Origin: Phyllosticta citribraziliensis
Taxonomy: Eukaryota
Direction: 5' to 3'
Assembly: GCF_038025025.1 (NCBI RefSeq)
Contig: NW_027117353.1
Coordinates: forward strand, 620,001 to 684,000
DNA: 64,000 nucleotides
Shown: positions 7,072-56,251 of the stretch, in pieces
Layout of the letters: every line of letters begins with the position of its first letter
Numbering within the stretch: the first letter of the stretch is position 1
Notes under the pieces: generated by a model
The model's database searches: none
Told to the model about the DNA's origin: nothing
The model's input: only the letters and a program-made list of their open reading frames with translations
Position numbers and translations under genes: made by a program

Positions 7072-7681
7072 TAAGTAGTTTTGCACGGCAGCCAGGCGTT
7101 TGGGGACGGCGTAGGGGGGCAGCGACGGCGTTTCAATCAAGGGTTTCACGGCAGCATCTGCAGGTCTAAATGTCCAGCGAGGCAGTTATATCGCGACATG
7201 AGGTGGTCTGGTGCAGACGTCCATGTCTTCTGTTGTTGGCGCGGGACAGCATGACGTCGGATCAATCAGCACGCTGCGATAATTCCGCGCTTAGTCAATG
7301 CGACGACTTGACGATTCGCCGGCCAAGGACAGCAATTTTATCACGATGAGTGGAGCCTCTGGGAGCCACCGCTTGGCCTGGAATTGTTGGTGCCGTACAG
7401 CAGTATTGTAGTCGTAGATAGCAACAGAGTCCGCGGGGCCGAAATGGGCAAAAGATTCCGCAGCGAGAACCCCGCCAAAGGTACCTTTACCCCGCCGCCA
7501 ACCTCATCGTCAGCCTGCATGGCATGGAGACGCCCTGCTGCCAACAAGCCCAGTGCCGGGCGAGAGGAGGCGAGGGGAGCCCAGTGGAAGCCAGAATGCG
7601 AGATGGTGCCATTGGTCGGTTCCCATTGTAGACACCGTCGCTCCACGTCGATATCCTGTATCCGCCGGTCTTGGGCTTGGT

Positions 7682-15185: not shown

Positions 15186-18100
15186 ATGAATGCATCGCCA
15201 GCCCATGGCCCAACCATACATGGACCGATTTACGAGGTCCATGTGCAATCTCTTGGAGCATTCGATCACCTTTGCTCCCTTGCGAGGACATCGGACGTCT
15301 TCCAGCAGGACTCAGCTCTGCTGCCTTATCTCCTCGAGGAATACGATAGGTACCAGCTTTGGTCCGGCAACCTTGGTGCAGGGCATCCAAAATACAAGCT
15401 GTCTCTCGATTACCGCTTAGAGGACGCGTCTTTTTACCGTGACCAAGTAAGTTCTTCGAAGTCCCGAACAGCGACGTATGAACTGATACATAGGTTGCCT
15501 CGATAGATTCTCAGTCTCCTCAAGATCCTGCGCCGTCATATTGGAAGAATCTTGGGCGTTACCGGAGGAAATGCTTTGCCGAGCGAGCTCTGTTGGGACT
15601 CAGATGATTCCACCAGCACAACCGACGAAGATGACGACTCGTCACTCAGGATCTCATCAGACTCGGACAGTGAATTCGGGACTGGTGATGATGACCCCAA
15701 AGACTCTCATCGAGCACCGGTGGCAGAAAAACTCATGTCCTTGCTGGAATCAATCAAGCTCACCATCAATTGCTTGTACAAATTGCCGGTTCGAAAGCCT
15801 GCCCCCGTTGATCGACTGAGGGACCGATTTTCGGAAAGTGTGAACTGCTATCGAGACTTCGACATCATGTATGTCAGAGACAAGTTCAGCCCTCATATCG
15901 ATGGAAGAGTCGCAAAGAGGTTGGGGAAAATGGTCACGCGCCGACGGCAACTGCTTCGTTATCGGGAATCACACGCAAGACACCTCAAAGCAAGCCCCGC
16001 TTCGACCCATGGACCGCAAAAAGTCCAGAAAAACGCTGGCAAGGCTTTGGAAGGAAGCGCCTCCAACCTTCAAGTAGACGGCACGAGGAGCGTCGCTGGA
16101 AATAGCAGCCGCACGGGAGGATCAAAATCCGAAGCCACCAAACTGATTCCGGGCGCAAATAGAATCAAATCGGAAGATCTCCTTAATACGATGTTGACCA
16201 CAGAAGCAGAATCGGTTACATCTGAAGCCGCAAGCGATTTTACAAAGGAGAACCCCGTGGAGGTTCCTCCCAGGCCTCAAAATGAAAAAGGGGTGCCCCT
16301 GACAAGGTTTGAATGCGGGTACTGTAGACTGACAATCTATATTCAATCAGAGAGGGACTGGAAGTGAGTCTACAATTCCGATATGGGATGAATCCCTACT
16401 GAATGGTACAGGAAACACGTCTTCCAAGATTTGCAACCCTACGTCTGCACTTTCGCAGAATGCGAGCTTTCCGAGCACTTATTCGAATCTCGAGACGCCT
16501 GGTTCAAACACGAAGCACAAAAGCACCGAATTGAATTCTTCTGCAATACTGAAGGGCACGGCGTCTATAGCAGCCGAGCATTTTTCCTGGAGCATTTATC
16601 CCGAGAACACGGCACGAAACCTGAGACGGCTTCAACACTTCCTGAGCTTTTTAGGCGACCGTCTCCAAAGTTGATGCAGAAATGCAACCTGTGTGGTCGA
16701 CCGACCGAAAAGTTGAAATCGCATCTTTCGCGCCACCTTCAGCATATCGCCCTGTTTGCCGTGCCGAGATCCCATTACCTTTCCGAAACTGATGCAAAAG
16801 AAGACGACTCGAACTTGGCTCAACAGGCGAAGCCAGATGCTTTATCACAGCAGAGTCTTGAGACGACATCGTCCGACTCCGAGAGCGAGACCGATGAAGA
16901 AGCAAAATCAACAATTCCACCATGGCTGAATCAAGCAATTCAGGAAATGCACCAGAGACACGAAAACTCGGCATTTGAGGCCGCTATGACAGAACTACGC
17001 ACAGTCACCGGAGAGCCGCTTGGAACAGAGTTGCAAATCAAATGCCTTGACTGCGAGCGACTTGTTCCAACTGGGCCAGGGCACACAATAGGAAACTTCG
17101 AGGTGCATTTAAATGACCAAGCACACCTCGACGCAGTTCGTAAACGAACCGAGGCAATATTGACTTGGCTCTCGCCAGAAGACCATCTCGCCGTTCACGA
17201 CAAGATATCGAAGTACGTTGACGAGGGGAGCTGCCAGTGGTTCCTTGATACGAAGCTGTTTCAATCATGGGTGACTATGGAGATACCAAATCTGTGGTGC
17301 TTTGGACATGGTATGTCTCTCATCAGTCGCTGCCAGAGCCCCAACGCTGACTTGATTTTCTAATTTCAGCGAGTGTGGGCAAGACCTCCGTGACGTAAGT
17401 TATTTGATATCTCACGAAAATACGTGTCTGACATTACAGCAGCTCTATGGTGATCAAGAAGACCAAAGAAATCACCGAAGCGGCAACTGACCACGATAAC
17501 CACCATCGGCTCGCGTTCTTGTACTTGACACGTGAAAGAGCTTCCACAAATAACTTGCTTGGAATTCTCGCGCGGCAAATCCTCAACGGGCGCCTTGGTA
17601 TGATGAAGTCAGTGGGTCTGGTGGACGAATTCTTCAAGAGAAGCGACTGGTCCGAAAACCCCCTCGAAGTGCCGAAACTTATTGCACTGCTGTCCAATTT
17701 AGCCCTCACGTCGGCAGGTGGAATATATCTGGTTGTAGACGGTCTTGATGAGATTGTAGACGGGAACCAACGACAAGACCTGTTGCATCAACTGCGTCAA
17801 ATTGAGCAAGCTAAGATCTTGATCATGTCACGCCATTTCGAGGGATCTGAGGAACTGTCTAGAGGGTTCGAGACGATGGAAATGACGCCTCCAAAAACCT
17901 TGAGAGACTACATGGAACAAAGGCTTCCCCAGCTACCTCCCGATCTGGACTCAATGTATTCGAGAATGCTTGAACTCATCATGCAACAAGAATCCTCTCA
18001 ACGGGAGTGGGCCCTTTGGACCATTGGCTGTCTCTTCCTCACAGATAGGCCGCTCTCGATCGACGATCTTAGACGACCCGTATTGTTAGGACAGGATCTT

Positions 18101-18948
18101 CTTCATCCTCCGAAATCTTTTGACGGAGGAAAATTGCTCGAGGAAAAGGATATCCTGAACGTTTGTCGTAACTTTCTGTCAGGAGACAGCAACGCATTCT
18201 GGTTCTCCCACATGTCCACAACGACCTTTTTGCAGATCGCTCTAAAAGAACAGCATTCGGTATTTCACATCCAAATGTTGGACGTATTGGGCATAACTAA
18301 ACCAATAATGGACCTCAAAAAGGAGTTGGTACAAAGCAGCCGTGGTTCAAGTGATGATGAGGCTTCAGAAGAGACCGCGGCAGAATCAACGCAGGATGGC
18401 GAAGCCGCAGAGTCTCTACTCGCGTCAAAGATTCAAGACAAAGGCTCCATGAGCGAGCCCTTCACCACGGCCGACAATGAGGGAAAAGCGTCGGCAGACC
18501 ATGAGAAGGGTAAGTCTGCGCTACTAAATAGCCCTATATCCCTCAGATTCAATACAGGTCGTCAAGCTAACGGCAGTGCGAAGATTCGAAGTATTCGGAT
18601 GATTTTGGGAAAACAAGCACCCAGTCTTTGCATGAAGCTGGGGTGGATTCTAACACTCAAGATTCATCTGCTGCCCCCCTATCTGGTGTCCAAAGATCCT
18701 CACCATTCAGAACAGGAGGCCCGGGAATCCTTCGGGAACGGTGGCCGCTGACACCACCAGCGTTGTTTGAAAAGGGAGATAAGGTAGCCTTCCACGGGAA
18801 AGGAAACTCGCTCGATATGCGAAAGGGCTTCGAAGTAGTTAAGATAAATCAGTACGACAAAAGTGGCCGTTGGGCCTACGATCTAAGAGGCGGCCGTCAG
18901 TTGGTTAAAGGAGTACCGGAAAAGTATATCCGGTTAGAACGGCCCTGA
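15186..18948 (+). CDS. Chimeric NLR-like protein: fungal N-terminal domain, C2H2-type zinc fingers, CxxC..H..H finger, NACHT (internally shortened), acidic linker, small SH3-like C-terminal domain; ~6 exons
   Basis: RYQLWSGNLGA...SLDYRLEDAS; FECGYC...DWK|KHVFQDLQPYVCTFAEC...WFKHEAQKH; ILTWLSP...GSCQWFL...LWCFGH|ASVGKT (Walker A); IYLVVDGLDE (Walker B). Consensus splice sites at 15447, 16364, 17311, 17395 and 18510. Confidence 0.75.
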
Positions 18949-19576
18949 GCGGTGGGCGCGATGTTTTTGTTTCAAAGGAATCGTTTCCAGCAGCTTCTTT
19001 CTCCTGGAATCGCACCTGATCCGAAGCAGAGAGATAGTACGTCAGCTCCGGGGAGCAAACGCACGGCCTCACGTCGTGCAAGGCACAAAGCATCAAAAAG
19101 CTGCCACGTTTGTACCTCGTCACGGACCACATGTTCATCTTAGTTCCACATGTAGCAACGAACCGGGGCCGGGGACAGGTCCGATTGACCCCACACCACA
19201 CAGTTGTCCATCAGCTCCTTTCAAGCACTCAAGATTTGACACCAGGGCAGAATTATGTCGGTCAGCTCGCTGTCAACCGACCAGTCAGGCTAATCACAGC
19301 CTCAGATGTTCACTTCTCGCTCGCGGCACAACTTCCAGTCTTGACAGCCGTACGGCCACAAGCAGATGGATCTGATCATCAAGGACGAATGAATCGAGGC
19401 TCATCCGCCCCACATCCGACGCGCTTCGCCTTGGTGACTTGGTCCCTGCTTTCTTGTACGTGACGCACAAAAGTCTTCCGCCTCTTGATCACTTTTCAAG
19501 CTATCTGTACGACATATTGCAGACCTCCAAGATACAACAGTCCGTCGGCGGGTGAGCATCCGAAGGTCCATAGAAG

Positions 19577-22500
19577 ATGGCCGATGCTCCAACAGCCCCA
19601 GGGACTGTGACTAGCCATTTTCAATCGAACAAAGGCATCATTAGTCACCAATTAACAGCTCCAGGAGCAACCTTGGTCGGTAAGTTAATTATGATGTTTG
19701 AAAAGGCGCACCAATCACTGATGACTAAAAGCTAGGGATCAGAACAACAACAACTACTGTGAGTAGAATGATCCAACATCGCAAACCAGAACACTAACGA
19801 CAATAGACAACTGTGGTCCTCATCATGAGGACGAAGAGCGCGAAACGATACTCAACTGGCTTTCACCCTTTGAGTATTCGAGTCAGCATGATGCGATATA
19901 CAAAGACATTGTTCCTGGGACCGGACAGTGGCTGCTTGATTCTACGCAGTTCAAGATGCTGCTTGAAAACAACAAAAAGCTGTGGTGTTTCGGGCAGCGT
20001 AAGATGCACTGGTTATGCAATTCTGCGCCGTCGAGCCCTCGCTAACATTCTGATTTTGACCACAGCGGGTGCTGGAAAAACTTCTCTGGCGTCAGTATTT
20101 TCCCGTTAACGAGAAATCTTATCTGACTGCGTTACAGGTCTATCGCGATCAACCACTTCCGCGGCATTCTCCAAGATCACAAGGAGGAAGAAAAACCTTG
20201 TCGAGTCGCCTTCCTTTACCTGTCGTACAGAAAAGACCCGTCCATCCTTCAATTACTCGGAGCCCTTGCAAGACAGCTCATTGGCTCATCACAAATGCCG
20301 CCAGCCATGAAAGAGCTTTGGGACACAGAGCGCAAATTGGGAAACGATTTCCAGGACCCACCTTCGCTACCACAGCTGGACAAGTTGCTTGCGGAACTGA
20401 CATCAGACGGCAAGAACTTTATCGTCATCGATGCTTTGGATGAATTGAACACGTCCCGACAAAAGGACCTGCTCTTTCATTTACTGAAAATCCAAAATCA
20501 CAGACTCATGATCACATCAAGGGTCTTGCAAGCCCCGGAGGACTTTATGAAGTTAGAAATATCGGCCAACGGGGACGATGTGAACAAATTTATCGAACAA
20601 AGAATTGAGAACGATGCGGACTTGAAAGAATACACCAAGGATACGAGAGGCCTGAAGGAAGAGATTCAAAAAGCGATCAAATCACGGGCCAATGGAATGT
20701 AAGTCAGGGCATCTCATCTGTCCCAAGTACAGTGAATTGCAACGCTAAGCCTCCACATGTGATAGGTTCCTGTTGGTTCAATTCCACATGGACGCTCTCG
20801 CTGATGCAACAACAGTCACAGAGATCCGAGAAGCCCTGGAGGCATTACCCAGTAAGCTCAATGAGGTTTATGAGAATGCTTTGGAGCGGATCCGCAAGCA
20901 GGGCAAAGCAAGAGAAGACTGCGCCATGTCCATCCTTGGCTGGATACTTTTCGCATTTAGACCTCTTGGGGTCCAAGAATTCAGACATGCTCTGGCAATC
21001 CGACCTGGCAAAGACTTCGATTTCAACAACCTGATTCTGGAGAAAAACATCACCGGATTCTGTTGTGGCTTGGTCAGCATTGACCGCGACCTCGGTGCAG
21101 TCACTCTATTCCACAAGACAGCAATGGAATTCTTCGATGATAGGAGAAAGAACGAATTGTTCCTTTCGTTCCATTCAAGGATCGCGCTCGCGTGTGCAAC
21201 GTACCTTTGCACTCCTGAGCTGGAAGAATACACTGACCCAGAAAGCGGAGCGCTTACGCTGTGGCCGAACTTCGACAGCGATACCAACTCAGAAGTGTTC
21301 GACTCAGATATCAGATTCTACGATTCAGACTCGGATCCAGACTGTGATCCAAACTCAGATTCAGACTCAGGCCCAGAGTCTTTTCAGGGGTATGGCCGGG
21401 AATCTTGTTCGCACTCTCATAAAGACTCACCTCAGACAACTGGAGAACGGCCCTGCGCGGAGTCGGATAGGGAGTCAGATGAAGGGTCCGAAGAGTCGGC
21501 CGAACAGTCTGTCGAAGACAGTGATGAGGATACCGACACAGAGCCCTTTCTCACCAACAAATTGAAGAGATATCCATTCTCTGAATACGCCGCACTGCAC
21601 TTGGTACAACATTTCAGAAAAGACTTAAATGCGGAAGCCCGAAAAGACGTGGAGGCTCAGATCCGTTCACTCATCAAAAGTCTTCCAAAAACGCTATTCC
21701 TGGCCAGGCTACTCGGCTCCATGGAGATCGATTATCAGTACTTCCCAAATTCTGAACTTGACTCCCCTGGATCAGCGAACAGATGGTCAAATTCGTTTAG
21801 ATGTATGCTCGAATTATCAGGTCACCCCTCGGATATCCAATTCGCTGCCTTTTTTGGCAGCGCAATGCTAGTGCAAGAATTCATCCAGAATGGCCACCAG
21901 ATAGTCACGCTGAGAGACAGAGGCCAATACGCTCTGGCTATCGCTGTTAAAAACGGGTTTGATGACGTAGTAGAGACTCTCCTCAATCATGGAGTGAAAC
22001 TGCGCCTCCAAGACCCCTTTTCGCATATCATTCTTTTCGCCACGACAAAGGCAAACCCGGATGTGGTGCGCCTCATCCTTTCCAGCATGTGCGAGGATTT
22101 GAGGCCACAGCGAATAGAGTCAGCGGCTGGACATGCTGAACCCAAAATGGCAGCAAGGAGAGTGGTTCAAACATCCGATTCAGAAACCACGCTAGACTTC
22201 TGGGTCATGGTTTGGCTCGGAGTTGGTTTCTGCCAGTCCTTTACCACACCCAGCTGCTCTGGCCTCCCCATCGAAGCTTCAGAGCCGCGAGAGCCCCATC
22301 CCGCGCAGTTTTTAAAGCAAAGGGTCATGACCCTGAAAGAGCTCGAGCCGCCGGACCATTACCTGCGCTTACTCATTGCTTGTTTCAAGGGTGATGCTGT
22401 TCACATATCAAGCCTTGCAGAACGCAATCTGGTCGATCTGAGAACACGTCAAAAGACTAACTCCAGTAAAGAAAGGAAGAAAAAGTTCCTGATCAGGACT

Positions 22501-23212
22501 TCATTCTTTCTGTGCGTAGGGAGAAATTACAAGGAGGCGGTACAGGTATTCCTAGATCATGGTTTCGATCCCAACGCAACATTCTTCGGGTCACAAACAG
22601 CGCTGCACGTTGCCGTCAAGAAGGACCTCGTACCCATGGTCAGGTTATTGATTTCTGGAAAAGCAGACCCGAACCGTAAAGATGCTGGTGGCAATACACC
22701 CTGGAGCGCATATGCATGCGCGGCTCGTGCCGCAGGTACGATACCCTTTTCTTTCTTCGCAGGATACAATGCAAGACCTCTAGGGCTGACCATTAAACCT
22801 AGTTTCAAAAGAATTGTTGGACGCTGGTGTAGATCCTGACTCATCTGGCCGACGAAAGTTCCATCCTCTCCATAGGGCAGTCTGCGCGGGGAAAAGCCCC
22901 GACGTAATATTCCTTCTGAACAACAAAGTCAACCCTTCAATCCCGAACCGATACGGACTGACTCCCCTGCAAATTGCCGTTCATAAAAGACATCTGGAAT
23001 GCGCCAAGATTCTGCTGGAATTCGGGGCCGACCCGAATCAGGGCATGAAGTGCCATCCGGGGACCGTGATTGATCTAGCCACGCACACCGGGATGCAAGA
23101 GATGGTAGACCTGCTTGTCAAGCACGGCGCAGAGAGACGACCAGGAAAAGCCAGGAAGCAAGATATGACCCGTTTGAAGGGTTTCATCGACGAGGAGCTA
23201 AAAGAAATGTAG
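19577..23212 (+). CDS. NACHT-ankyrin NLR (NLR-1) with a short N/Q-rich N-terminal motif
   Basis: Inferred exons start 19577-19679, 19732-19758, 19807-. ILNWLSPF...PGTGQWLL...LWCFGQ|PGAGKT; FIVIDALDE; ANGM|FLLVQFHMDAL; winged-helix WILFAFRPL; ankyrins TALHVAV, HPLHRAV, TPLQIAV. The start exon is less certain than the rest. Confidence 0.85.
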
Positions 23213-23434
23213 GACCCATTTCTCTGAGGTGTGATAGGACCGCGCGCGTCAGTCCGAGAAGTAGCCACGATCTTATGTGTAATATATTCAACCATGTAAT
23301 TAATTTGATGCCTTCAGAGAGCACATGGATTGGTTTGTGGCTTCAAACCCATTCATTTGTCTGTGCAGGCGGTTTTGCTCCTCACCCTCTGCGATCGTTT
23401 AGGTCAAATGCTGGCCAAGATGTAAGATCAAGCT

Positions 23435-24812
23435 TCAGCGGCCCTCCGGATGCCATCCGTTGTAGTTCTGAGCAAATGTTAGCGCCGAGGGGCATCTCCT
23501 GAGCCAATGACCGCTTACCGTCGTCGAGCTCCCAATAAAATGCATACCATCTGCAGCTGCATTATACACACTCCCCATGATGACACCACCGTGGTTCTCG
23601 ACCCTCTCCCGGAAGATTGTATCTCCAATATGGATCGCGCTCGTCTAGAGTTGACTGTCAGACCAGAACCCCTATTCCAACCGATTGACTTACTTGAGTT
23701 TGCACAGCTTCCTCTGACGACGGAGATTCCAACGCAGTGATCCACTGGCAGAGCTGATCAGATACGCTGCGGAACCCAGAATGCTCGGGAAAGGCAAATC
23801 TGCACATCTCGCGATGGTTCGCCGGAATTGGCTGCGGTTTCTTCCCCGGAATCGTGGCTGAATCCTTGTCGACCACAAGCCCGAAGCTCTTTGCGATCCG
23901 CATGGGATGTTCCTCGAAGAAACAAGCGACATCAAGATAGTTCCCATCATCAGAATGCGCCCTGCCGTCCAAGTACGCCAGAAACGCGGAAGTGATGTCG
24001 GATGCCTTCTCTGATCGCTTTTGGAGATTCTTCATGCTGCTGTCGTTTGTTGTCGTGAAGAGAGAAGCCACGCGCAGAATGACTTTTCCAACTGACGCCA
24101 TGCTCGATCCTTTGAATGGGGTCCCGAGGAAAGCAACACCTTTCGTCGCATCTGCGATGTTGTGGCTGGCGACATCTGAACCATGCTGCCGGGAGAGCGC
24201 ATTCGCGACAACGAGTCCACCAAGGCTGTGCGCAACGAACAGCAAAGGACGCTCCAGCTTGAGATGGTCAGTCATTTCCAAACCAACGCCGAGTGATGAA
24301 TTGATCTCACAGTTCCTGTCCGGTTCCTCAGCCCAGCAAGGCTTTGAAGCAAGGAAGTGGAATACTCATCCAAGCTAGTCTCCAGGGGAATCTCTTTGCC
24401 GAGCCAGGATCTCGCATAGTCGGCGTCGTACCCAAAAGAGAGGATCCGAGCCGTCTTGCAAACATCGGGCAGCAAGTCCTTGGGCCAGAACACCGGGTCA
24501 GGATCCTCATCAGTCGGCTTTGTGGACCAAGTGTTGACTCTGTCGCCTCCAAGGCCATGAACGAAGATGATGCTGTGATTGTCAATCTACCAGTCCCGAC
24601 TGACCTGGCGAAAACCCGTACTCAACAGTTGCATTCGGCGGGTCAGACAGCGGTTCACCAAGCCCTGTCTTCGGTGTCATTCTTGTCTGTTCAGCCTGAG
24701 CAGGTCCAGCCTGGCTAGTTGCAGGCTTCATTTCTGCGTTCCCCTCAACCTGAGCAACTCCTTGTCCGCGCTCAAATGTCAAGCCGCGGAGGCCCATCTC
24801 CAATTTCACCAT
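23435..24812 (-). CDS. SesB-like alpha/beta hydrolase (lipase-like NLR effector) with a C-terminal putative amyloid motif; 5 exons (24812-24622, 24572-24311, 24257-23694, 23644-23519, 23467-23435), ~391 aa
   Basis: VD|IIFVHGLGG, FWPKDLLP, ARILSFGYDA, LLFVAHSLGGLVV (nucleophile elbow), FLGTPFKGS, CFFEEHP, IPANHREMCRF. All four introns have GT donor, CTRAC-like branch and AG acceptor and keep frame. The start could alternatively be an internal Met near 24680. Confidence 0.88.
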
Positions 24813-25435
24813 GTTCGCGAAAGGGTTTTCGTACGTCGATTGGTTCACTGCTTTGGATGTGTAGTAGAAAATCAAGTGCAATCAGTTTTCTGGAAACCTG
24901 CAGTCACTGTCCTCGACGAGTTTGAAGGTCCCATATATACCACCAAATGGCGATATCTCAAGTACTGTTTTTAAGTTGGTTTCACTATCCGGGAGAAATG
25001 CGAGACATAGCTCGCGTCTTCCTCAGTGCGCGTCTTGCTAAGCAATGTTTCGCTCTGCACGTGTCTTATAAGATGGCACTTGCAAGACGCGGCTGTGAGA
25101 CGTGCTAGACGACATGCTAGACTTACACCTGAATTGGCAGGCGGAGTGGTTTGTTAGTTCTTGATGCAAAGATGATGCGTCGAATTCAGGCGCTAGGAAC
25201 CGACAAGTCACTCCCATTTGCGCTCCGACACGCCCCGAGTGCGTGTGGCTGAGTCACCCGTTGAAACAAATCCCAGCTGAAGACTCCATGGTGACTTTGG
25301 CACCGCGGGTCTATATACAACATTGAGATGGTCGACAGTGAATTGGACTTTTGATATTGTTGTGAACCAAACTGCCCCTGGATACTGCGTCGATACCCGG
25401 AAACATTGTCAAAAGTTGTTGCCGAGTCCAAAGCC

Positions 25436-28400
25436 ATGGAGAAAGATGCGATCGCTTTTGCTGGACTGGTTCCTGGGAAAACGCCTTCTTTGGACAACAC
25501 CTTTGGTGACGTCTCGAACGAGCGTGGTCTCTTTGTCGCGAACTCGATCAACCACGGACAGCAGACTCAAATTGGTATGTTGGGAACTCGAATCAAGCCA
25601 ACACCTGCTTCTCTTGCTGTAATATCACAGGCTCCCAGGTCATAAACTACCACGCTTCGCCCAAACCACACGCAATAGAATCGGAGGTGCGCGAGAAGAT
25701 AGTGAGCTGGCTGTCTCCGCTGGACTGTTGCGAACAGCAACGAGATCTGTTCAACAAAGCTGCGCACGGGTCCTGCCAGTGGTTTCTCAGTTCGCAGATG
25801 TTCTTGTCATGGAAGACAAGGGATACTCAGTATCTTTGGTGTTCTGGGAAGCGTATGTCTACCACTGCCGTCGCAATGCGGATATCAGGCTGACGATTCC
25901 CGTGTCTCTTCAGCCGGGGCTGGAAAGTCGTTTCTCTCGTAAGTCAATCATTAGGACGCAGGGGGTAAATATTCCTGATTTTTGCCAGATCCATCGTCAT
26001 CAAGGAACTCAAGCAGCACAAGAGGGATTGCCAAGTTGCTTCCTTGTCCCTGTCATACAAACAGAAACCCGCTCTGACCGACCTGTTTGGAAGTCTTGTT
26101 GGTCAACTCATTGGCAGTCAGTTGCCTCCCTGCGTGCGAGACCTTTTTAACGGAGAGAATAACAAACCGAACCCGTTCGGAAACCGCCCGGACTTGTCAC
26201 AACTTGAACACCTTTTGTCGGAACTGGCGTCCACCAATGACACCTTCATAGTCGTCGATGCGCTAGATGAGTTCGATCCCAGCCAACGACAAAGTCTGCT
26301 GAACTCGTTGCGTAAGATGAAAAATGTCAATCTTTTCGTCACGTCACGGGATCAATCGACGAGTGGATTTGAGACGATGGAAATTTCAGCGCAAGAACCC
26401 GATATTCGAGCTTATGTTGACCAAAGGATCCCCCACGAGTCGCGTTTGAAGCGGTATACCGATCAAGTGCCGCGCTTAGAGGAAGAAATCAAAAGCGCCG
26501 TCTGCGAGAGGGCCAACGGCATGTGGGTTCCCCACTTTGAAGCGCTGAGGATGACTTGAACACTGACGTTCTGAGAAACAGGTTTCTCTTGGCCCGATGC
26601 CACATGGACACGCTTGCCGCTTTGGACACTCGTGGCGAGGTCCAAAAAGCGCTGCAGAAGCTGCCCAGCGATCCGGACTCGATGTACACGAGTACTTTGA
26701 AACGAATCGACAGCCAACAGGACTCGAGGCGCAAATGGGCACTGTCGATTCTCGGCTGGATGGTCCACGCGGGTCGACCACTGGAACTCGACGAACTTAG
26801 ACATGCGCTTTTGATAGGTGGCAAGGTGGACTCACCCCTTGAGCCCGGCGATCCCTTCTTCGACCACAGCTTCACGCTCTCGGGCGAAGACATTACGGAA
26901 TTTTGTTGCGGCTTGGTAGAAATCGATGCTGGTAACAACAACACGATGAAGCTAATTCACTTCACCACGCAGGAGTTTCTGCACGAGAGGCGAGCTGAGC
27001 TTTTCCCACAGTTCCACGCTCGAATAGCGTTGGCGTGCGCAAAATATCTTTGCCTCCCGCGTCTGGAAGTCCTTGAACTGGATCGCGGCAAGTTTGGACG
27101 CGCACAATATACCGACGGCGGACTTTGCAACGGGCCCCACGACTACGCCGAAGAGTTCAAGGAGTATGAGAGGCTGTGGGAAATCCAGAAAACCAAAGAG
27201 GAAGCACGACTAGGCAAGACAATCGAGGGGTACGACGATTACGAGTACCGCGAAAAGCACTTCGAGCTGTCAAGAAATCGGGACGGGTTGAAGATAAGGT
27301 GGGAGGCACCCAATGTGCCGTACTACAATGGCTCGGGTGTTCTGACGAGACTTCCTTCCGATTTGAAGTTCTGGCTGTATCCCTTCGTCAGCTACGCCGG
27401 CAGGTACCTGGTGCACCATTTCAAGGCGCTCTCCGACGACGCCACCCGATCGCTTGTCGAGGAGCAGATTCGCATCATCTGGCAAAGCCCGCCCAAGCTG
27501 GCCCTCCAGCAATCGGTTTTTGAATCCTTGACTTGGCATATACATTTTCACCTCGAGACCCTGGCTGAATACGCCGCCTTCATTGGAAGCGTATCGCTTT
27601 TTGAACAATACAGTCAAGGCAGTACTCGGGAGGACCGAGAGAAAGCGTTGGAGATTGCAACGCGGCACGGCTGCACGAATGTGGTGAGGGCGCTGCTCAG
27701 GGCTGGCCTTGTTGACCTCACGTGCATAGATGGCCATTACCTGCTCATCGGCACTGCACAGCAAGGGTTCCTGACCGAAGTGAACCAAGTCGTCTCCGAA
27801 ATTGTCGACAACTTGGACGCGGCCAAGTTCCATCACAAGTCGAAAACGCTGACGAAGCGGACAAGAGACTGGTTTGACAGCGCACCTCGCCCAGATACGT
27901 CAGAAAACGATCGCTTCTTCCCAAGACTGTCGCTCGTCAAGCTCGAAAGCCACGTCCGGCTTCTTTCTGCGGTGACGACGGGAGATGCTGCCGCAATCCG
28001 GCGACTCGTCGAAGAGAGGTGCATCGATCTGACCTTGTCGGTCAAACTTGCCGCCCTGTCGAAGCCGAAGAAGATGTTGGAGAACCGGGTCAAGGCTCTG
28101 CTCATCTACACGGCGTTTTTCTTGTGCGTCGAGAACTGCCACACGCAGGCGGTAGAGGTCTTGCTGGATCACGGGATCGAGGTCGACTCGCGAGATTTGG
28201 AATGGCAGACGCCGCTTCACCGCGCCGTGGTTCTCAACTGTTGGCCCATCATGAAACTTTTGCTTAGCAGGCAAGCGTGTCTAGACTGGCGAATGTGGCT
28301 GCCAGAATCTGGTACCAATAGCGTCGAAGGTGAAATCCTCTCCCAACTCTTCGGGTCAAGCGATTGGCTGGGGCCTGTGAGCTGACAGATTCCCTCAGTC

Positions 28401-28955
28401 CTGAAGCTTCTCCGCGATGCTGATCCGGAATCCGGTGCACCGGCCGTTTACATGGCAGCGCGTGATGGACAAGCCGGTCTATTGCGAACACTGTTAGGTT
28501 TCGGCCTGAGCGCCTCGACTCGAAACCTGTTCGGAGACTCGACTCTGCACCTCGCTGCCCACAATGGCCACGCCGATTGCATCGAGCTTCTGGTCCAAGC
28601 TGGCGTCGACATCTCCATCAGAAATCCGTCTGGGAAGACACCTCTGCACCTCGCCATCCGTAGTAACGAAACGCACACCGTCAAGCACCTTCTTGCGTGC
28701 GGGGCAGACCCGTCTGCTCAAGACCAGGACCGAGAGAGCCCTCTGCACATCGCGTCTCGGTACCGTTCCGTTGATCGCGTCAAATTTCTGTTGGATGCAG
28801 GTGCGGACTGCAACGTGCTGTCAAAGCGGGACAAGACTCCGCTCGACGAAGCCTGCAGCACAGAAGTGGCGGAACTGCTGATCGAACATGGCGCGAAGAC
28901 TGGTCCAAGTCTGTTGGAATCGACTGGTGATGCACGCCGAACACCACAAGCCTAG
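25436..28955 (+). CDS. NACHT-ankyrin NLR (NLR-2) with an N-terminal putative amyloid motif, head-to-head with the SesB-like gene
   Basis: Exon 1 25436-25574, exon 2 from 25631. IVSWLSPL...GSCQWFL...LWCSGK|PGAGKS; FIVVDALDE; ANGM|FLLARCHMDTL; ankyrins TPLHRAV, STLHLAA, TPLHLAI, SPLHIAS, TPLDEA. Confidence 0.9.
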
Positions 28956-39645: not shown

Positions 39646-42600
39646 TTACTCGGCGCCTGTGGACTCGTCGTTCACGGAACTGGAGTTCAGTGCAATCTCA
39701 TCAGACCCTACTCTCTCGTGGTCTAGTGACACCGTTGTCTTTTGGACGACGAGTTTCCCGCGCGCTAATTCCTGTTTGTTTAGTCTCAGTCCATTCCCTT
39801 TCATCATCCGCCGTTTTGCTGGTGGGTAGAAAATCTGGGCCACATCCGTCGGACTGAGAGGATGTTCGGCTTCGTTGTCTGAATCAGATTCTCCCTCCGA
39901 AAGCCTTTGAAGCTCCCTGGCTGTCTTGCCACCGTGTGCCTTCAGGAGATTCTCGGCCCTGCATTTTCTGATCGATTCCGATAAAGAAAAAGTGTCATAA
40001 TTGCCCAGTACATGCATCTCCAATTCGTCAACTAGGGTCATTTTTGTACCCACGAAGACATTGGGATCGGCTTTGTACTCAAGTAGAATTTGGCTCATCT
40101 CGAGACCAACTTCTTGAACAGCTACCTGTAGAGGCAACTTCCCGTCCAGATCTCGAATACAGGGATTCCAACCTGCTTCTAAGAGCGACCTCGCTAGCTT
40201 GAGATCGTTCTTGTCGACAGCATCAATGAGGGCGCCTGAAGCATAGCGCAGAGCTAGCGGGTTATTGGCGCTAGCATCAATTAGAAGCGGGAGAACTGCA
40301 CCTTGGACGTAAGCTTGAAATTGCTCGTGACTGAGCCAAGAAAAGGGTGATAATGGTGGCCTCACTTGCATCTTGAATGAGAGGAACGGCTGCCCAAACG
40401 GTGTTCCCGTGACAGTCTTTCAAATCTAGGCGTGCATTTTTGCTCAGCAGTAGCTGCACCATGGGTTTCGAGTTTCTGTACAAAGCTCGGTGCAATGCCG
40501 TCTGAGAACTCCTAAAGTCCTGCCAATCCACATTAATGCCATGATCCAAAAGTTCTTTCACCGCTTGGGTGTGGCCACTCTCAACACAGAGAAAGAATGA
40601 GGTCTGGATCAGATATGCCCTCGTGCTCAAACTGGTCCAACCCATATTCTCTAGATCTCTGGGGAAGAGTATGAAACGGTTTCGGCGGAGGAGGCTTGCA
40701 ATTGCACCAAAGTCGCCTCCGGCTGAGGCGTGAAGAAGGTGAATGTGGTCACTGATTGAGGTTGGGTTGACGCGTCCAAAGTGGTGCGGTGGAAACCGCG
40801 AAGAATAGGCAGCCCTTGACGACCAACCAATGGCCATTGCGGATTTGGACTTGGACCCCGGGCTTTGGATTGTCTTTCGTTTCTCCAGGTCTGTGAATAT
40901 AGCGGCCACGACTTGATTAACTTCCTCCAAGCAGCCCTTTCTCGCAGCGTCAAGCAAGAGTGCGTGACCACGCTGGGTTGTCAGGTTGACTATGTCTGCC
41001 AAGCCAAGAACAGCCTTTATGACATCTGAACAGCCATTCTCTATCGCAACTTCCAGCCCGTGCTCCACTTTCGATTTGACATGATCTGGTGTACTGGACC
41101 TGAGGTAATGCTCAAAAAGCCTTGAACTCCCGATCAGGGCGGCGTGATCAGTCTCCCATGTCGATACATTTTTCTCGAAGTCTTTGAGCAAATTTTTATG
41201 AAAGAGTCGACTTCCCTCATTTCGAAGTAGAAGGTTGATTTGATCCTCTACGACCAGACGATTGTTATTGTTGAGGATCGACCGAAAATGATCACTCAGA
41301 AACTTCCCCGCGTATCCACTGAATGGATACAAAAGGTATTTTAGTCGAGAGTGGAGCCGCTTCAGAACGCCTTGACCGTTGAAATAGACATTCTCACCCG
41401 GCTGCAATCTGTAGCAGAAACCGTCGGCGAAACCTTTTCTGACACGCGCGAGACCCACATGGCGGCCTTTGTCCTTTTCTTGGTTGAGGTACTTTTCAAG
41501 CCTGATGTATTCTTGGAGTTCCCCTTCGTATTGCAGGTCTTCAAGGCGGGAACTGGTGTAGAAGCCTTCGGGATCAAACATCTCGTCATGGCTTGTTGTA
41601 TCCTCAGAATCCGGCGTATCGTCACAGTCGGCAAGACGTGGGATGCAAAGATACTTTGCACAGGCTAGCGAAATTCTTGCGTGGAAGTCCGGAAAGAGTG
41701 TCTCCTTCTTCGAGACAAAGAATTCTTGAGTAGAGTAATGGATTAGTCTGAAGGATAAATCGCTGTCGGTCTCCACCAGGCCACAGCACAGGGCCAGGAT
41801 ATCGTCCTTTGAGATTAAGCTGCTGTAGCTGAAAGAAGGGTCGCCAGATTCGAGGAAGTCATTGGTTCCTCCTGTCAAAAGCGCATGTCGAAGTTCGTCG
41901 ACCTCGAGTGGCCTGTATGCGTGAACTATCCAGCCGATGATCGTCATGGCGCGTTGCCGCTTAGTCATACTTTCCTTCTCGATTCGATCCAAAGTAGCTT
42001 CATACATGGAGTTTCGACTCCTTGGAAGTTTTCTGAGCGTATTTCGAACTTCATCAGAGTTGACACACTCCGAGAGGGCATTAATATGGAGGCGGGCCAG
42101 CAAGAATCTATTGGTTCAGTGGATCAGCATGCGTTCATGCCAAAGCTACAGTTGAGCGTGATTCGGGCGGACTGGTTTGGAGCGGTCCGGGGTACACCAG
42201 AGGACTATCGACGAGCCGCGGATTGTTCAGACATAGTGTTCATCGCGCTCATCAGGTTGATGGAACTCAAAGGGTCTTGATACTTACATTCCATCGGCCT
42301 TTTCTAGCACTTCACGAGGAATCTCTTCCCTCAGTTTCTTGTCTCGATCCACGAGACACTTTAAAGGTGAGCCTTCCACGCCCATTTGATCGTCGATGTA
42401 GACATGAATGTCTTTTTGATGGGCAGCAATGTCGACTGTCTCGAATTCTCCCAGTGCTTTGTACCTGGAGGTAACCAGAAGGCTGACGTTCGGAAGCCCT
42501 CGCAAATGATTCAGGAGAATGTGACGTTGACTGGCATCGAACTCGTCCAAGGCGTCAACAACCACGAAGGTAGTGTCGGTTACAAGACGGGAGAGGAGCT

Positions 42601-43360
42601 CTTCAACTTGAGGCAATGCCGGAGGAGCTGAAAACGGCTTTACTTTCTTCATTTCGTCGTTCCAAGCGCTTTGGATGAAGGGTGGCAACGGAAGAGAATC
42701 GATCAGCTGGCCAATAAGTTGACCTGCGAGATTTCCAAGCAAGTCCTGGACTGAAGGGTCCTCTTTGTACGATAGGTACAAATATGCAACTTGTCGGCCG
42801 GCTTTGCCATTTATCTCGGCGATGGCAGTGGAACTGTGCAAAAGTCAGGGTCTGAGGATAGTCATACGCAAAGAGGTGTAAACTCACGAAAGGAAAGACT
42901 TTCCAGCACCAGCTAAAATGCAACGGACTCCATTAGTACATATCCTGAGGTGGCAACGGTGGATATACCTTTCCCGGAGACCCAGAGATATCGTGATTTC
43001 TTGTCCCTCCATGATGTGAACTGTTTTGATTCGAGAAACCACTGTCCTGTGCCCTGGACGACTTTGGAGCGAATCTCTCCCCACACTTTCGAGGAGTCGC
43101 GTGGGGAAATCCATTCCATGAGCTCGCGGCACTTATCAGTTTCTGACTTGAACGATGCGCCCGCCACTGTTGAGATTAGACATGTAGTATCTTAACATCC
43201 TCGGGTATCACTTACGGACAGTCTGGTTTGCTTTTGAGGTTCAGTCAGAAGTGCTCTGTTCTTCAGTACTAGATCCCAGCTTACCGATGATATCTCCCCT
43301 ATGATGTCCGATCGTGGGGCCCGCGTTCGAGTACTGATTGATCGTGTAATTTTCACCCAT
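39646..43360 (-). CDS. NACHT-ankyrin NLR (NLR-3) with a short N-terminal PP-like motif
   Basis: Inferred exons 43360-43285, 43230-43216 (15 nt), 43166-. LMEWISPR...GTGQWFL...LWVSGK|AGAGKS; FVVVDALDE; ADGM|FLLARLHINAL; ankyrins TALHRAL, LPLQVAV. Confidence 0.87.
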
Positions 43361-44357
43361 TCTCAGAAGGTTGTGTGTACGCCCACGCGGCGGGCGCCCT
43401 TACAAGCACTCGCCAGTCCAAGGCTTGCGGCGAAGCGATGAAGAAGGTGCGCCAAAGCGCAAAGGCTGAGCTCGTCGTTCTCTTGCAAAGCAATACAGCA
43501 GTGTCTAGACTTTCATGGCAGGCCACGATGAATGCGGGGTGTTGAGATTCAGTCTGCTGACTGCTTGAGCGAGATGTGCCCGGAGATTGCAATGCCCGTT
43601 GGGGTCGATTGTGTCGAGTGGAGAAAAGTGGACGTGGACGGCTTCGATTTGCTCTGGCACGTGGGCGTCGAAGTCCTGCAAGTGGAGATATCCATCAGCT
43701 GTAGAAGGGGTATCTCCGAGCCGCTGTTGAGAGGACTGGGCGAGCGAGACTCACACGTCTTGTGTTGAGATGCCATCGACGAAGTGGAAAAGTTGTGTGG
43801 GTTGCAAGAAGCAGAGACGAAGGACAGTTGTGTGGTGTGGGTCGATCGGACGGACCCGCTCGTGGTCCGCTGCTTCTGGTTTTAGCCACGCATCCCAATC
43901 TGTTGTTCTGACTACTTCCATCTTCTCCTGTATCTGTCTCACAAAGGCCGATCTGTGTTTGATACCGTTGAACTCCTCTAGTAACGAAGCATCTTCGCTG
44001 TGCTGTGCATATTCACACCGCTGCGACCGCCGCGATTCGCAATCGTACCCACAGCTCCACACATGTGGGGAGACCCTGGAGTTGTTTGATTCCGATGCCG
44101 ATGAGGCTTCACTGCTTTTCACAAGATCGTCGTGGTTCGATGCAAGGCACAGAATGTCAAATCCACAGGGTAAGGTAGGTAGTTGATAAAGTCCAGATTC
44201 TGTCGCTACCGCGCCGCGCCGTTCATACGCCATTCGTCCATACATCAATCCATCCGGCCAGCCGTCAAAGGTTCAATCGCCCCAAGACATGACACAAAAC
44301 GCCAGGCGCCTTTACGGTCCCATGTACGCCGTCTGCACATTATTCACCTAGACAACC

Positions 44358-45953
44358 TCATGTCCCAGCAGCTGCATCCGCCTCCTTCCCGGTTTCTTTT
44401 GTCAAGTAGTCCGCCTGCTCAGCGTCCTCGTATTCAGCGATGAGATCTTGAACGACGGCCTTTGCCTCATCAAACTCGTTCAGCCCATCGGCAAAGGGTG
44501 CCTCACGCCTGTATTGCTCGAGGAAGGCATTGCGCTTGCGCAGACGATCATACTGGCCGACAATGCGCTTGAAGAGCGTAGCGACGCCCGTATGGTTGGC
44601 GAGCATAAGTCCCGACACGCGGTGCGACGACTGCACATAGGGCGACTTGCGCGTCAGCGCCACTTGGATCGAGGCTGGGCCCCAGGGAATGAAGGTTGCA
44701 AGGCGGCGCTCGCGGATGCGGAGGAGCGACTTGTGGACATCCGAGGGATCGGCTTCGCCCTGGATGATGTTGAGGATCGAGATGTAGCACGAAGACTTGC
44801 TGGGGTTGATTGAGACCATGCGGTTCTTGGGTTGCAGGAGACGCCGCATCACCTCGAGGACGGTCGTCTTCCGTACCGCCTTGGCTTGCTCGACTTGGTC
44901 GCCGGTGAAGGGTGTGTAAGATGTTGTGAGGAAGTGGCAGCGCGGAGTGGGTATCAATGAGGCGACGATGCCGACGAGGTCGTTGTGCATGTAGCCGGGG
45001 TAGCGCAGAGTTGTGGTCGAGGCGGACATGACGGTGCTGACAAGCTGGTTGGTCTGCTGGAACGAAGGCTCCTGGACGTGCAGCGTATTCGACGCAATGT
45101 GCGAGAGGGCGCCATTGTCCAGTACGACGACCGAATCTGCGTTTTGTGCGAGGCGGCGCATGGCCAGCAAGCTGTTGTATGGCTGCACAACGACGTCGCT
45201 CTTTTCCGGGAAGACCGAGTATGTCTGGATCAACTTCTTGGGAAATCGATCATTCAACCTCTCGAGCAAGAAACTTCCCAGACCAGACCCGGTACCACCC
45301 GCAATCGAATGAAGCAGCATGAAGCCTTCGAGAGAGTCGCTGCCGTCGGCCTCGCGGTCAATCATGTCCATGACCTCCTCATGCACCGACTCGCCCATGG
45401 CATATCCTGCCGCCCAATTGTTGCCGGCACCAGTGCCATCTTTGTGGACGTAAAAGTTCTCGGGGTTGTAAATGTTCCGGTACGGGCTGGTCTGGATGCT
45501 GTTGATGACCTGCTGGAGTCAGCAATCGATCCCAGGAGATGCAAACGCGCAAGTTGACGTACACGAGGCTCGAGGTCCATGAGGATGGCGCGGGGAATGT
45601 AGCGAGTATCGTCGGACTAGTCATGTTAGACTGGATCGCATCGAGTGCGCAGGGCGGGAGGTCGTGCCTGGTAGAAGAAGACGTCTTTCCTGTCGCCGCC
45701 TTCTGTCGCAAAGTCTTCTAGATTTCCATCCTGATTGATGCCGTGCTCCTGGCACAACTGCTGCCAGAATTGGCTGCCCACTGTGCAGTCAACCGTCAGC
45801 TTGGTCGCAAGGTCGTCGGGAGCGGTCAAGCTCGGAGAGATCAAGGCACGCACCGCTGTTGCCGCACTGGCCAGCCTGAAGAGTGATGATTTCCCTGGAG
45901 AGCGGTCAGTAGCTGCTTCGAGCTTCTGAGGGACAAGAGGCGTACCTAGGCAT
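44358..45953 (-). CDS. mipA: Gamma-tubulin (multi-exon)
   Basis: [73 protein letters not shown]. Confidence 0.98.
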
Positions 45954-54273: not shown

Positions 54274-56251
54274 CTATCTCGCACCGTAGTACGCAGCATC
54301 GCCACCCACACCAACTCCCACGCCCACTCCTCCCCCCCTGACCGCATCCCCACCACCCTCATCCAATCCCAAACCCCTCGCAATCTTCCGAATGACGACC
54401 TTCTTCAAGAACGCCTCGCGCGCAATCGCGCGCACCTGCTTGGCAAAGACGTCGGCGCCAACGCGGCCCTGATCCAGCGCCTTGCCCAGCACGTGGATGG
54501 CCTCGCCACACGCCCGCTCCTCGGCCACCAGTCGCCACAGCTGGCTGGCCGCCACTGTCGGCGCAACGAGCACCTCGTCGACGTCCGGCACCGCGCGCCC
54601 GTGCGTGTCGGCAATGACGCGGTCAGCCTCGCGCATGGCGCCGTCCAGCACCGCTGCGTTGGACGTGAGCGTTGCCGAGAGGGACGCCAGGTTGCCGCGC
54701 TCCGATTGCAGCCGCGAGTAGGCGGCGACGAGCGCCGCGTGTTGAGCGCGCAGCGGCGGCAGCGCTGAGAGGTTCGCGGATACCGTTTGGGAGGTCAGCG
54801 TGCGCAGGTGTGAGGACAGCGCTGTGAGGAGGGCGTCCTTTTGCGGGTTCGGCGGGATGGGGGGAGCAGGGGGGAGCGCGTTGGATGAGGGATCTTGCGA
54901 GGGCAGCGTCACGTCGAGGGGAGACGTCAGGAGGTCGAAAGCAGGCGGTTTGGGAGCGGGGGCGGTGGGCGCAGGAGCGGACGTGACTGGCGGAGGAAAT
55001 TGGGGTTGCGGTGGCTGTTGGTATGGCGGAGATGCGAAATTTGGCGGCTGATATTGATATGTCTGAGGAGGCGGCGGCGGAGGTGGTGCGCTGTACGTTG
55101 GTGGTGCCGGAGACGCTTGGGAAGCCGCATCTTGTCCTGGAAGTGGAGGTGGCCGAGAATATCTTGCTGGAGGGTCTCCGGGTGTGCCGCCAGGACTAAT
55201 TGGACTCACGGGGCTATCTCGTCCGATTGGGGAAGGGCGCGGTGGGTAAACATATTGCGGGCGCGGCTGTGCTTGTGTTGGTCCATGTATCTGGGGAGGA
55301 TACTGGTGCGGGATCGGCGGTGATCCATATCCAGAACCACCATTTTGAGATGCAATTTGAGGGGGCAAGGGTGGCACTGGTGGTGCTGTCGGCGGTGGTT
55401 GACTGTATCCATTCGCACTAGCCTGTCCGTTTGACAGGCTTGTGTCCTTTGGTGGTTTCGGTGGCGGAGGAGGAGGAGTGGGCTGATGCTGAGGGGCTGG
55501 AGACGGACTTGCTCGCGGTTGCATTTGCTGTCTCCACTCTTCGGGCGTTGGGGGGACAGGCGGTGGCTGTTGTTGACGCTGAGGGGAGCTGTAGCCTTGA
55601 CTCTTCGCGACCACGGGGGGTTCCTTGGCGAAAACGCCGCGAAGGACGGTGAGAAAGTCCGCAATGGATGATTTCTGCAACAAGTTAGTCCACGAGCTTG
55701 CGCCGCAGCAAACGTCCCCAAGGCAAATGTGACATGAACCATTCGACATTTCTCCCGACGTCCAACTTACATCCCAGTGTTGTGACCAACCACTCAAATA
55801 TGGGTGATAGACCCGCCCGTCCGAGCTGACATGCTGTCCCGGACGCACCAACATGTCTTGGTTCGGCGTCACGTAGACCAAAGGTGGCTCTCGAGGATAT
55901 GCGTGCGGCACCCACAATGCGATCGGGAAGCGGTAGACAGCGCCGCGGAACTGCACAGGTATGGTGCCGTTGAGGAGGAGGAGCAGCGCGGGAGTGCCAT
56001 TTTCGTAGGCTGAGGAGCGTGTCAATGAGGCGACGGTGCCAATCGCGAGAGAGTTGACGCACTGTAGACTTCGGTTTTGGGGGAGAGAGACGGATACTGC
56101 CCAAGAGCTTCGGCGGCGTCGTTGTAAGTCCGGTTTACATCTGTGTATTCCTAGATGGGTCGTCAGAGGGGTTCGACTGGATTGCGAGCAGCATTACATT
56201 TGCTAGGACGCTGTATAACCAATTCAAGACGCGGTCGTTGACTGGGGGCAT
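54274..56251 (-). CDS. VPS23: ESCRT-I subunit Vps23/TSG101 (UEV, proline-rich linker, steadiness box)
   Basis: MPPVNDRVLNWLYSVLAN; LLLNGTIPVQFRGAVYRFPIALWVPHAYPREPP; DGRVYHPYL; C-terminal QLWRLVAEERA...FAKQVRAIAREAFLKK. Confidence 0.93.

Follow-up and report, generated by a model that had tools for sequence, protein, structure and literature searches.

A SesB-like hydrolase flanked by two NACHT-ankyrin receptors in Phyllosticta citribraziliensis: a probable NLR/effector cluster of the amyloid-signalling type with a seemingly undescribed motif

Fungal NOD-like receptors (NLRs) such as NWD2 activate effectors encoded beside them by templating an amyloid motif that the receptor N-terminus shares with the effector C-terminus, and the relay from NLR to executioner through an amyloid is among the few signalling mechanisms common to fungi, bacteria and animals (RHIM). 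Does a hydrolase gene of Phyllosticta citribraziliensis form a system of this kind with the receptor genes next to it, and is its motif one of those already described? We analysed 64,000 nucleotides of contig NW_027117353.1 (positions 620,001 to 684,000, forward strand; assembly GCF_038025025.1), here called the window, and all coordinates refer to its first letter as position 1. A gene for a SesB-like hydrolase lies in it between two NLR genes, NLR-1 and NLR-2. The initial annotation, made from the sequence alone, had proposed that the hydrolase C-terminus (the tail) and the NLR-2 N-terminus (the head) carry one motif and that the two genes are an amyloid-signalling pair. We consider it probable that the locus is an NLR/effector cluster of the amyloid-signalling type, with one hydrolase effector and two flanking NACHT-ankyrin NLRs. 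The proposed pair was upheld in part: the architecture, the tail family and cognate matches in four other loci speak for it, and the similarity of NLR-2 to the tail within the window is weak.

Splice reconstruction of the hydrolase gene (SesB-like/DUF676; 24812..23435, minus strand) gave five exons and a product of 391 amino acids. All introns are 49-53 nt long and have GT..AG ends and CTRAC-type branch sites. The two small terminal exons that encode the tail were found exactly where the initial annotation had placed them, and the spliced translation agrees with its tail peptide letter for letter (Table 1). The intron 23693..23645 has a GTAAGT donor, a CTGAC branch site and a TAG acceptor. The last intron, 23518..23468, has a GTAAGC donor, a GCTAAC branch site and a CAG acceptor, and its 51 nt are in frame when retained, so that the protein has the same end either way. 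Annotated orthologues of P. citricarpa (P0001, 90% identity) and P. capitalensis (P0003) are continuous over both terminal junctions (..SSTT/NY..), and P0001 is also continuous over the junction of exons 1 and 2 (..NATVD/IIFVHGLGG). In the annotation of P0002 the hydrolase has no tail. The nearest database proteins to exon 3 (83-90% identity) bear the source names P. citricarpa, P. citriasiana and P. capitalensis. Contigs of two runs that are not recorded as RNA (X1 and X2) were mapped on 19300-26100; they skip GT..AG introns and are hence called RNA-like. Such contigs were found at the hydrolase/NLR-2 intergenic region (24714-24977 and 25331-25527). Another, of 161 nt (24577-24737), runs unspliced from exon 1 into the modelled intron 1 (24573-24621, minus strand); it could represent pre-mRNA, intron retention or DNA carry-over, and the orthologue annotation favours the splice.

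By its sequence the product has an alpha/beta-hydrolase fold with a GxSxG nucleophile and a conserved histidine. Pfam DUF676 matched exon 3 with an E value of 3.2e-4, just above the cut-off (20.7 bits against 20.3). The serine of HSLGG (Ser167) and the later His304 (P0001 numbering) were among the columns at least 90% conserved in 24 homologues, and one hydrolase homologue carries the source name 'SesB protein'. Foldseek returned generic alpha/beta-hydrolases only, with E values down to 8e-8, and the hydrolase substrate therefore cannot be inferred from these matches. The AlphaFold2 model of P0001 has an alpha/beta core with predicted local distance difference test (pLDDT) values of 80-95; its tail, residues 336-396, has values of 40-48 and no secondary structure. 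On this model the hydrolase is an effector with a C-terminal extension, predicted to be disordered, that follows the folded domain, and its gene adjoins an NLR gene.

Homologue tails from many genera align over about 45 residues. Their pattern is [ST]-[IV]-x-phi-G-[DEN]-phi ... N-x-(G)-G-[VI]-[VI]-x-G-[NHS] ... phi-x-phi-[TI]-G-[ST] ... [NY]-Y (phi, hydrophobic residue), that is, three phi-x-phi-G-[D/N/S] units and a terminal N-Y. A profile of 17 hydrolase tails (A1) was searched against 1.84 billion representative proteins and matched 39 of them at E<=1e-3. Ten of the 39 are at least 190 amino acids long, and all ten carry the motif at the C-terminus; the other 29 are fragments of at most 150 amino acids, several of which have hydrolase sequence upstream of the motif. 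Many of the fragment matches run on into a GTx codon directly after T-G-S-[ST]-[TN], consistent with a conserved position of the last hydrolase intron. In the window the hydrolase scored 72.9 bits and was the sole A1 match among 1729 open reading frames (ORFs). Source names in the tail family are Phyllosticta, Xylaria, Penicillium, Bombardia, Glarea and Paraphaeosphaeria, genera which we take to span at least four classes of Pezizomycotina. A search of the ESM Atlas with the P0001 tail gave no usable match.

The motif contains more N (2.65x), G (2.0x) and V (1.9x) than the hydrolase core and less L (0.34x), P (0.39x) and K (0.53x), a composition that would suit a beta-arch. The same N/G/V-rich bias has been reported for amyloid signalling motifs of bacteria and for beta-helices (bioRxiv 10.1101/2020.01.06.895854). 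The central residue of the tail core is V or I in most members. A G-V-Q-[AT]-G core, with the glutamine of the PP/RHIM type, was present in three of 62 tails (P0008, P0052 and P0066) and in the tail of a metagenome locus, L001 (2-1222, plus strand).

Metagenome contigs were scanned with an alignment of the hydrolase (A2), yielding 80 loci. Five have an A1-type tail, and a sixth, L005, was recovered by means of an NLR-head profile and has a P0014-type tail. In L005, L006, L007 and L009 the divergent upstream gene opens with a peptide that is collinear with the cognate tail, with z scores of 4.9-5.9 against shuffled sequences. The partner in L006 is an NB-ARC-TPR NLR (Pfam, 2.7e-11), and its Smith-Waterman score of 41 was reached by 3 of 10000 shuffles; that in L007 is a NACHT NLR with the Walker A motif after two introns (score 48; 4/10000), and that in L005 a protein with a P-loop and ankyrin repeats (score 52; 4/10000). 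The L009 partner is represented by its first exons only, which are of NLR type and have a phase-1 intron in a glycine codon; exon 1 scored 38 (24/10000) and the spliced head 48 (0/1000). The first exon of the divergent neighbour was the top-scoring ORF against the tail in each of the four loci. In a head-by-tail matrix covering L006, L007 and L009, the cognate pair was the best of its row and of its column each time. Head/tail pairing was thus observed in four independent loci, and the hydrolase tail is best explained, judging from these sequences, as the copy, on the effector side, of a signalling motif addressed by NLRs. L001 has a family tail and is too short for a partner to be judged. The NLR partner in L005 (97-3549, minus strand) continues past its ankyrin repeats into a long stretch that by eye appears hydrophobic and membrane-spanning, an unusual C-terminus for an NLR if so.

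In the window, NLR-2 starts at ATG 25436 on the plus strand and is head to head with the hydrolase, 623 bp away. This start, the end of its first exon at 25574 and the gap of about 620 bp had been predicted correctly, as intron signals and a junction in the P. capitalensis relative P0072 indicate. The intron after exon 1 (GTATGT..CACAG) is 56 nt long, and annotated P0072 is continuous over the junction of exons 1 and 2. NLR-2 has an intact frame of 1074 amino acids with five GT..AG introns and encodes a NACHT-like/winged-helix/ankyrin protein (Pfam NPHP3_N, GPIID_WHD and Ank) that is 55.6% identical to P0072 over 1056 amino acids. An apparent in-frame stop at 28383 was dismissed, as it falls within a 69-nt intron. 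Exon 1 matched no Pfam family at E<=10 and no Pfam domain was found ahead of the NACHT-like region, in keeping with the earlier statement that NLR-2 has no folded effector domain there.

The second receptor, NLR-1 (19577..23212, plus strand), whose head is of the same family, had been overlooked in the initial annotation. It lies tail to tail with the hydrolase, 222 bp apart, and has seven exons and an open frame of 1095 amino acids for a NACHT-ankyrin protein (Pfam NPHP3_N). Its first three exons measure 103, 27 and 192 nt. A spliced contig of 5307 nt in X1 and several contigs in X2 carry NLR-1; six of its joints were seen in X1, two of these also in X2, and adapter sequence sets in at the 3′ end, near 23330-23341. 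A phase-1 intron inside a glycine codon is common to NLR-2, NLR-1 and the L009 partner. On their gene models both window receptors are short-head NLRs, with NPHP3_N/NACHT-like and Ank domains and no Pfam family in the first exons. Their heads are short, take the place of an effector domain and, as far as the alignments can be read, consist of the same units as the tail with shorter spacers.

Table 1. Exons and intergenic region of the hydrolase/NLR locus (feature, window position, strand, content)
NLR-1 N-terminal exons	19577..19812 (19577-19679, 19732-19758, start of 19807-19998)	+	head S-N-K-G-I-I .. A-T-L-V .. N-N-Y-Y; both introns are GT..AG joints in contig
NLR-1 remaining exons	19807-19998, 20066-20090, 20138-20698, 20766-22735, 22803-23212	+	NACHT-ankyrin
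Hydrolase exon 5	23435..23467	-	motif end (N-Y-x-G..), stop TGA 23437..23435
Hydrolase exon 4	23519..23644	-	main part of C-terminal motif (..I-G-D.., N-x-G-G-V-I-x-G-S, ..I-G-S-S-T-T); splice signals
Hydrolase exon 3	23694..24257	-	GxSxG nucleophile elbow HSLGG, conserved His; Pfam DUF676
Hydrolase exon 2	24311..24572	-	start of alpha/beta-hydrolase core, FVHGLGG; alignment A2
Hydrolase exon 1	24622..24812	-	ATG 24812..24810; canonical GTACGG donor at 24621
Divergent intergenic region, hydrolase/NLR-2	24813..25435	.	623 bp between ATGs 24812 and 25436
NLR-2 exon 1	25436..25574	+	head with motif F-G-D-V-S-N-x-x-G-L-F-V-A-N .. T-Q-I-G; conserved in P0072 (z 15)
NLR-2 exon 2	25631..25852	+	motif end S-Q-V-I-N-Y (to 25650) and pre-NACHT region
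NLR-2 exons 3-6	25914-25938, 25989-26522, 26582-28329, 28399-28955	+	Walker A, NACHT-like, winged helix, ankyrin repeats

A homologue search with the NACHT exon of NLR-2 returned two matches only, P0072 and P0073, both from P. capitalensis, and the sample on the NLR side is therefore small; a search with exon 2 (73 amino acids) returned none. The NLR-2 head is related to those of P0072 (z 15), P0073 (z 6.7) and L009 (z 4.4), and the NLR-1 head to those of L009 (z 6.4) and P0073 (z 3.8-4.4). By these comparisons both window heads are clearly related to the receptor-side head family and appear to be diverged members of it. The P0073 head resembles the window tail itself (z 5.2, 0/1000 shuffles) and scored 14.2 bits with A1; the window heads scored about 0 bits (0.9 bits for NLR-2). 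The NLR-2 head matched the tail of the P. capitalensis orthologue P0003 with a z score of 3.8 (2/1000 shuffles). When profiles of NLR heads and of tails were compared with one another, P values of 0.0016 to 0.0061 were obtained in the register of the initial annotation, and with a profile of five heads 18 of the 62 real tails, as against 6 of the 1240 shuffled ones, scored at least 7 bits. For the P. capitalensis hydrolase paralogue P0004 and the NLR-2-like P0072 the longest contig listed has the same length (2,009,864 bp), so that the two probably lie on one contig; head/tail similarity between them is weak (z 1.5).

How does this motif stand to those already described? We compared it with the published systems as described in the sources cited. 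The closest in layout is PNT1/HELLP/SBP, with the PP motif, of Chaetomium globosum and Podospora anserina, in which an NLR with a short motif lies beside a SesB-like lipase with the same motif at its C-terminus; the PP core is likewise pseudo-palindromic and G-bounded with a flanking N (PMC3321046; PMC5485727). The PP motif differs in being 17-18 amino acids long and centred on a conserved Q, whereas the motif here occupies about 45 amino acids on the effector and about 35 on the NLR, and a second effector of HeLo-like type bearing the motif was not found in the window. HET-eN/SesA/SesB of Nectria haematococca, with the sigma motif, also has a SesB-type hydrolase whose C-terminal motif, of about 40 amino acids, is common to an NLR N-terminus, but the sigma model misses the 17 tails and the heads tested, and no SesA gene was found in the window. 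NWD2/HET-S (HRAM1-5) is alike in that NLR and effector are neighbours, that the motif is without order before templating and has strand-arc units of the form phi-x-phi-G-N, and that the motifs on the NLR and effector sides co-evolve (PMC4518210). HRAMs differ in consisting of 21-amino-acid repeats with G19, hydrophobic residues at 5/8/10/16/18 and R/K15, and in being carried by HeLo, HeLo-like and PNP_UDP effectors (PMC4518210); units here are spaced by 17 and 14 residues in the tail and by 10-12 in the NLR-2 and L009 heads. PUASM (PNP_UDP-associated) and GDQN (SesA-associated) are alike in that each motif belongs to one effector type and was found through adjacency of NLR and effector (PMC9815663; PMC12261475). 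Their consensus sequences, FxGxGxQxxGxGxF and NxxxGxQYxxxGxGDQNxVSxxxxQxN, are different, and the effector here is a hydrolase.

None of the 17 tails, and none of the NLR heads tested, was matched at E<=10 by the Pfam models PF11558 (HET-s), PF17046 (PP; described as 'misnamed SesB' in PMC12261475) or PF17106 (sigma); in a control the paralogue P0026 matched PF17106 at 4.9e-8. As HMMER filters drop many weak matches, these negatives exclude membership and not distant kinship. We wrote patterns from the consensus descriptions published for the PP core (PMC3321046), G-phi-Q-phi-G (bioRxiv 10.1101/2020.01.06.895854), PUASM (PMC9815663), HRAM (PMC4518210) and GDQN (PMC12261475); they matched none of the 62 tails and none of 7-8 heads. 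Against the PDB, A1 retrieved no HET-s, HELLF or RHIM chain at E<=10. Fig E of the 2022 survey (Wojciechowski et al., PMC9815663) has motif clusters for PP/RHIM, HRAM, HRAM2, HRAM4, sigma, PUASM and PF01048_015, the only hydrolase-specific one being a sigma cluster. Twelve hydrolase and six guessed neighbour accessions were absent from the searchable supplements of that paper, and words of the motif peptide occurred in its N-terminal cluster alignments only as one unrelated 'IGSQ', a weak negative given that the alignments are gapped and incomplete. No hydrolase-specific motif of this kind is described in the available text of the literature consulted, including PMC12258605 and PMC12881547. 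The earlier suggestion that the motif may be new or divergent was supported as far as the models and patterns compared here reach, and the tail motif seemingly belongs to an undescribed, hydrolase-specific family, set apart by Pfam models and by patterns from consensus descriptions.

Several observations weigh against reading the window as an amyloid-signalling cluster. Within it, the alignment of head and tail proposed initially was reproduced in the same register by Smith-Waterman comparison, and its significance proved marginal: the NLR-2 head scored 34 against the tail, compared with 23.0 +/- 4.75 for shuffles (z 2.2), a score reached by 180/5000 shuffles and, in a second run, by 47/1000. 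By sequence, then, this similarity lies only marginally above chance. That of the NLR-1 head is not above chance (z -0.2), and the NLR-2 exon-1 ORF ranks 361 among the 1729 window ORFs. A profile of the NLR-2 and P0072 heads reached at least 3 bits on 5/62 real and 35/1240 shuffled tails, and a profile of the NLR-1 head on 3/62 and 17/1240; window-lineage profiles barely separate real from shuffled tails, and it is therefore P0073 and L009 that supply the signal seen at the level of the family. The 62 tails are mutually related, moreover, and counts over them are not independent. Hhalign probabilities for heads against tails were low (6-16%). The matches of A1 were all hydrolase C-termini or fragments of them, none of the 39 being the N-terminus of a long protein, and no NLR N-terminus was recovered. 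In L002, which has a family tail, no partner was seen in 1.1 kb upstream and 3.1 kb downstream. No contig of X1 or X2 covers 23386-24520, so that the tail splices rest on splice signals and orthologue annotation. Scores of 39-45 against the tail were also reached by other ORFs of the window (56058-56411, 7202-7279, 17608-17369 and others); these are not collinear with it and were rejected as chance matches. Complex prediction with two copies each of the window tail exon and NLR-2 exon 1 gave no answer (score 0.01) and is neutral as evidence.

These points could be met by supposing that the tail is NLR-addressed without the window NLRs being, or still being, its partners. Drift would have altered their heads, and a P0073-like NLR encoded at another place in the genome would serve as the cognate receptor. 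For other motifs, signalling is proposed to occur between genes that are not adjacent (PMC9815663), and P0073, only 30-37% identical to any window NLR, fits the Phyllosticta tails (z 5.0-6.8) better than do NLR-2 and NLR-1, whose lineage profiles fail as described above. However, both window NLRs are intact and NLR-1 is transcribed, the head of NLR-2 and the rest of that protein show about equal conservation with P0072, this head matches the P0003 tail with a z score of 3.8, and the head-to-head layout is that of L005, L006, L007 and L009. We regard a distant cognate receptor as possible, if doubtful. The tail might instead be an ordinary conserved extension with a regulatory, membrane-binding or oligomerisation role, its likeness to the heads reflecting a non-amyloid contact or shared low-complexity composition. 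This would accord with similarities that are short and G/N/V-rich, with the low hhalign probabilities and with the best, non-significant, match of A1 in the PDB, the folded beta-helix of MinC (E 0.47). Yet composition-preserving shuffles reached the cognate scores at most 4 times in 10000 for L005, L006 and L007 (for L009, at the frequencies given above), in 4/4 such loci it was the divergent neighbour's first coding exon that carried the match, the L006, L007 and L009 heads fit their own tail better than those of others, and the tail is modelled as disordered and not packed on the core. An ordinary extension therefore appears quite improbable.

A further alternative keeps the mechanism and denies the novelty: the motif would be a divergent PP/RHIM (or HRAM) branch already contained in specialists' profiles, for example the NLR-side motif NLR34, which is unassigned (Wojciechowski et al. 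2022). SesB-type hydrolases with PP motifs are indeed known (PMC3321046; PMC5485727). In length and in its flanking N the core N-x-G-G-[VI]-[VI]-x-G-[NH] agrees with the PP/RHIM G-phi-Q-phi-G, and the rare tails with G-V-Q-[AT]-G, in three family members and L001, hint at distant PP/RHIM kinship. The phi-x-phi-G-N unit presumably also resembles the end of a HET-s repeat. Against this stand the failure of all three Pfam models on 17/17 tails and the heads tested, with a positive sigma control, the silence of the self-written patterns, the absence of HET-s, HELLF and RHIM chains among the A1 matches in the PDB, a 2022 survey figure with no hydrolase-specific cluster save a sigma one, and the 18 accessions missing from the searchable supplements. 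That the motif is already covered seems to us unlikely.

Other NLR-like genes are present in the window. Upstream of NLR-1 lies one at 16392-18748 (plus strand), in which the ORF 17432-18748 is 26% identical to P0072/P0073 in alignment and the pre-NACHT region is matched by 17145-17306; as a long ORF (16392-17360) comes before it, the N-terminus is not a short head. A fourth NACHT-type NLR (40280-43400, minus strand) is 40-42% identical to P0072 and has a short head from about 43360. This head was rejected as a partner of the hydrolase tail, since 4400/10000 shuffles reached its score, and it has a modest match to the NLR-1 head (139/10000 shuffles). Beside this gene lies a long ORF (44361-45518, minus strand) with a GGTGSG motif, which we take to be the tubulin signature; the ORF is accordingly read as tubulin-like and as an ordinary housekeeping neighbour.

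If the locus is a cluster of the amyloid-signalling type, as we think probable, its working may be pictured by analogy with NWD2/HET-S, PNT1/HELLP/SBP and HET-eN/SesA/SesB (PMC3321046; PMC5485727). The ankyrin repeats would sense a ligand and the NACHT domains would oligomerise. The heads, brought together in this way, would take a cross-beta fold and template the disordered tail of the hydrolase, provided that the window heads still address it. The hydrolase would thereby be clustered or activated, and might carry out a defence or cell-death response by cleaving lipids or esters. Should the tail not form amyloid, the locus would be an NLR cluster of the ordinary kind in which the hydrolase has a conserved extension.

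To our knowledge the fungal motif families known are a handful: HRAM, PP, sigma, PUASM and, provisionally, GDQN. This catalogue would grow by a hydrolase-specific family in which receptors and effectors are clearly paired; such a family would also furnish peptides for work on fibrils, prions and cross-seeding, and would let many 'DUF676 domain-containing' proteins and short-headed NLRs be annotated. We tentatively suggest, as no more than one possible reading, that there is a further fungal amyloid motif family, specific to SesB-like hydrolases and used by NACHT-ankyrin and NB-ARC-TPR receptors, whose G-phi-V-phi-G core is a Q-less relative of the G-phi-Q-phi-G of PP/RHIM/BASS3, with rare members keeping the Q. 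If this is true, the family would offer a natural series on the role of the central glutamine in RHIM-type amyloids, and another on how far receptor and effector motifs can drift apart before templating fails, with the window at the diverged end. As a concrete case of two receptors that flank one effector and whose heads have drifted far from its tail, the Phyllosticta locus bears on the evolution of specificity and cross-talk in such systems.

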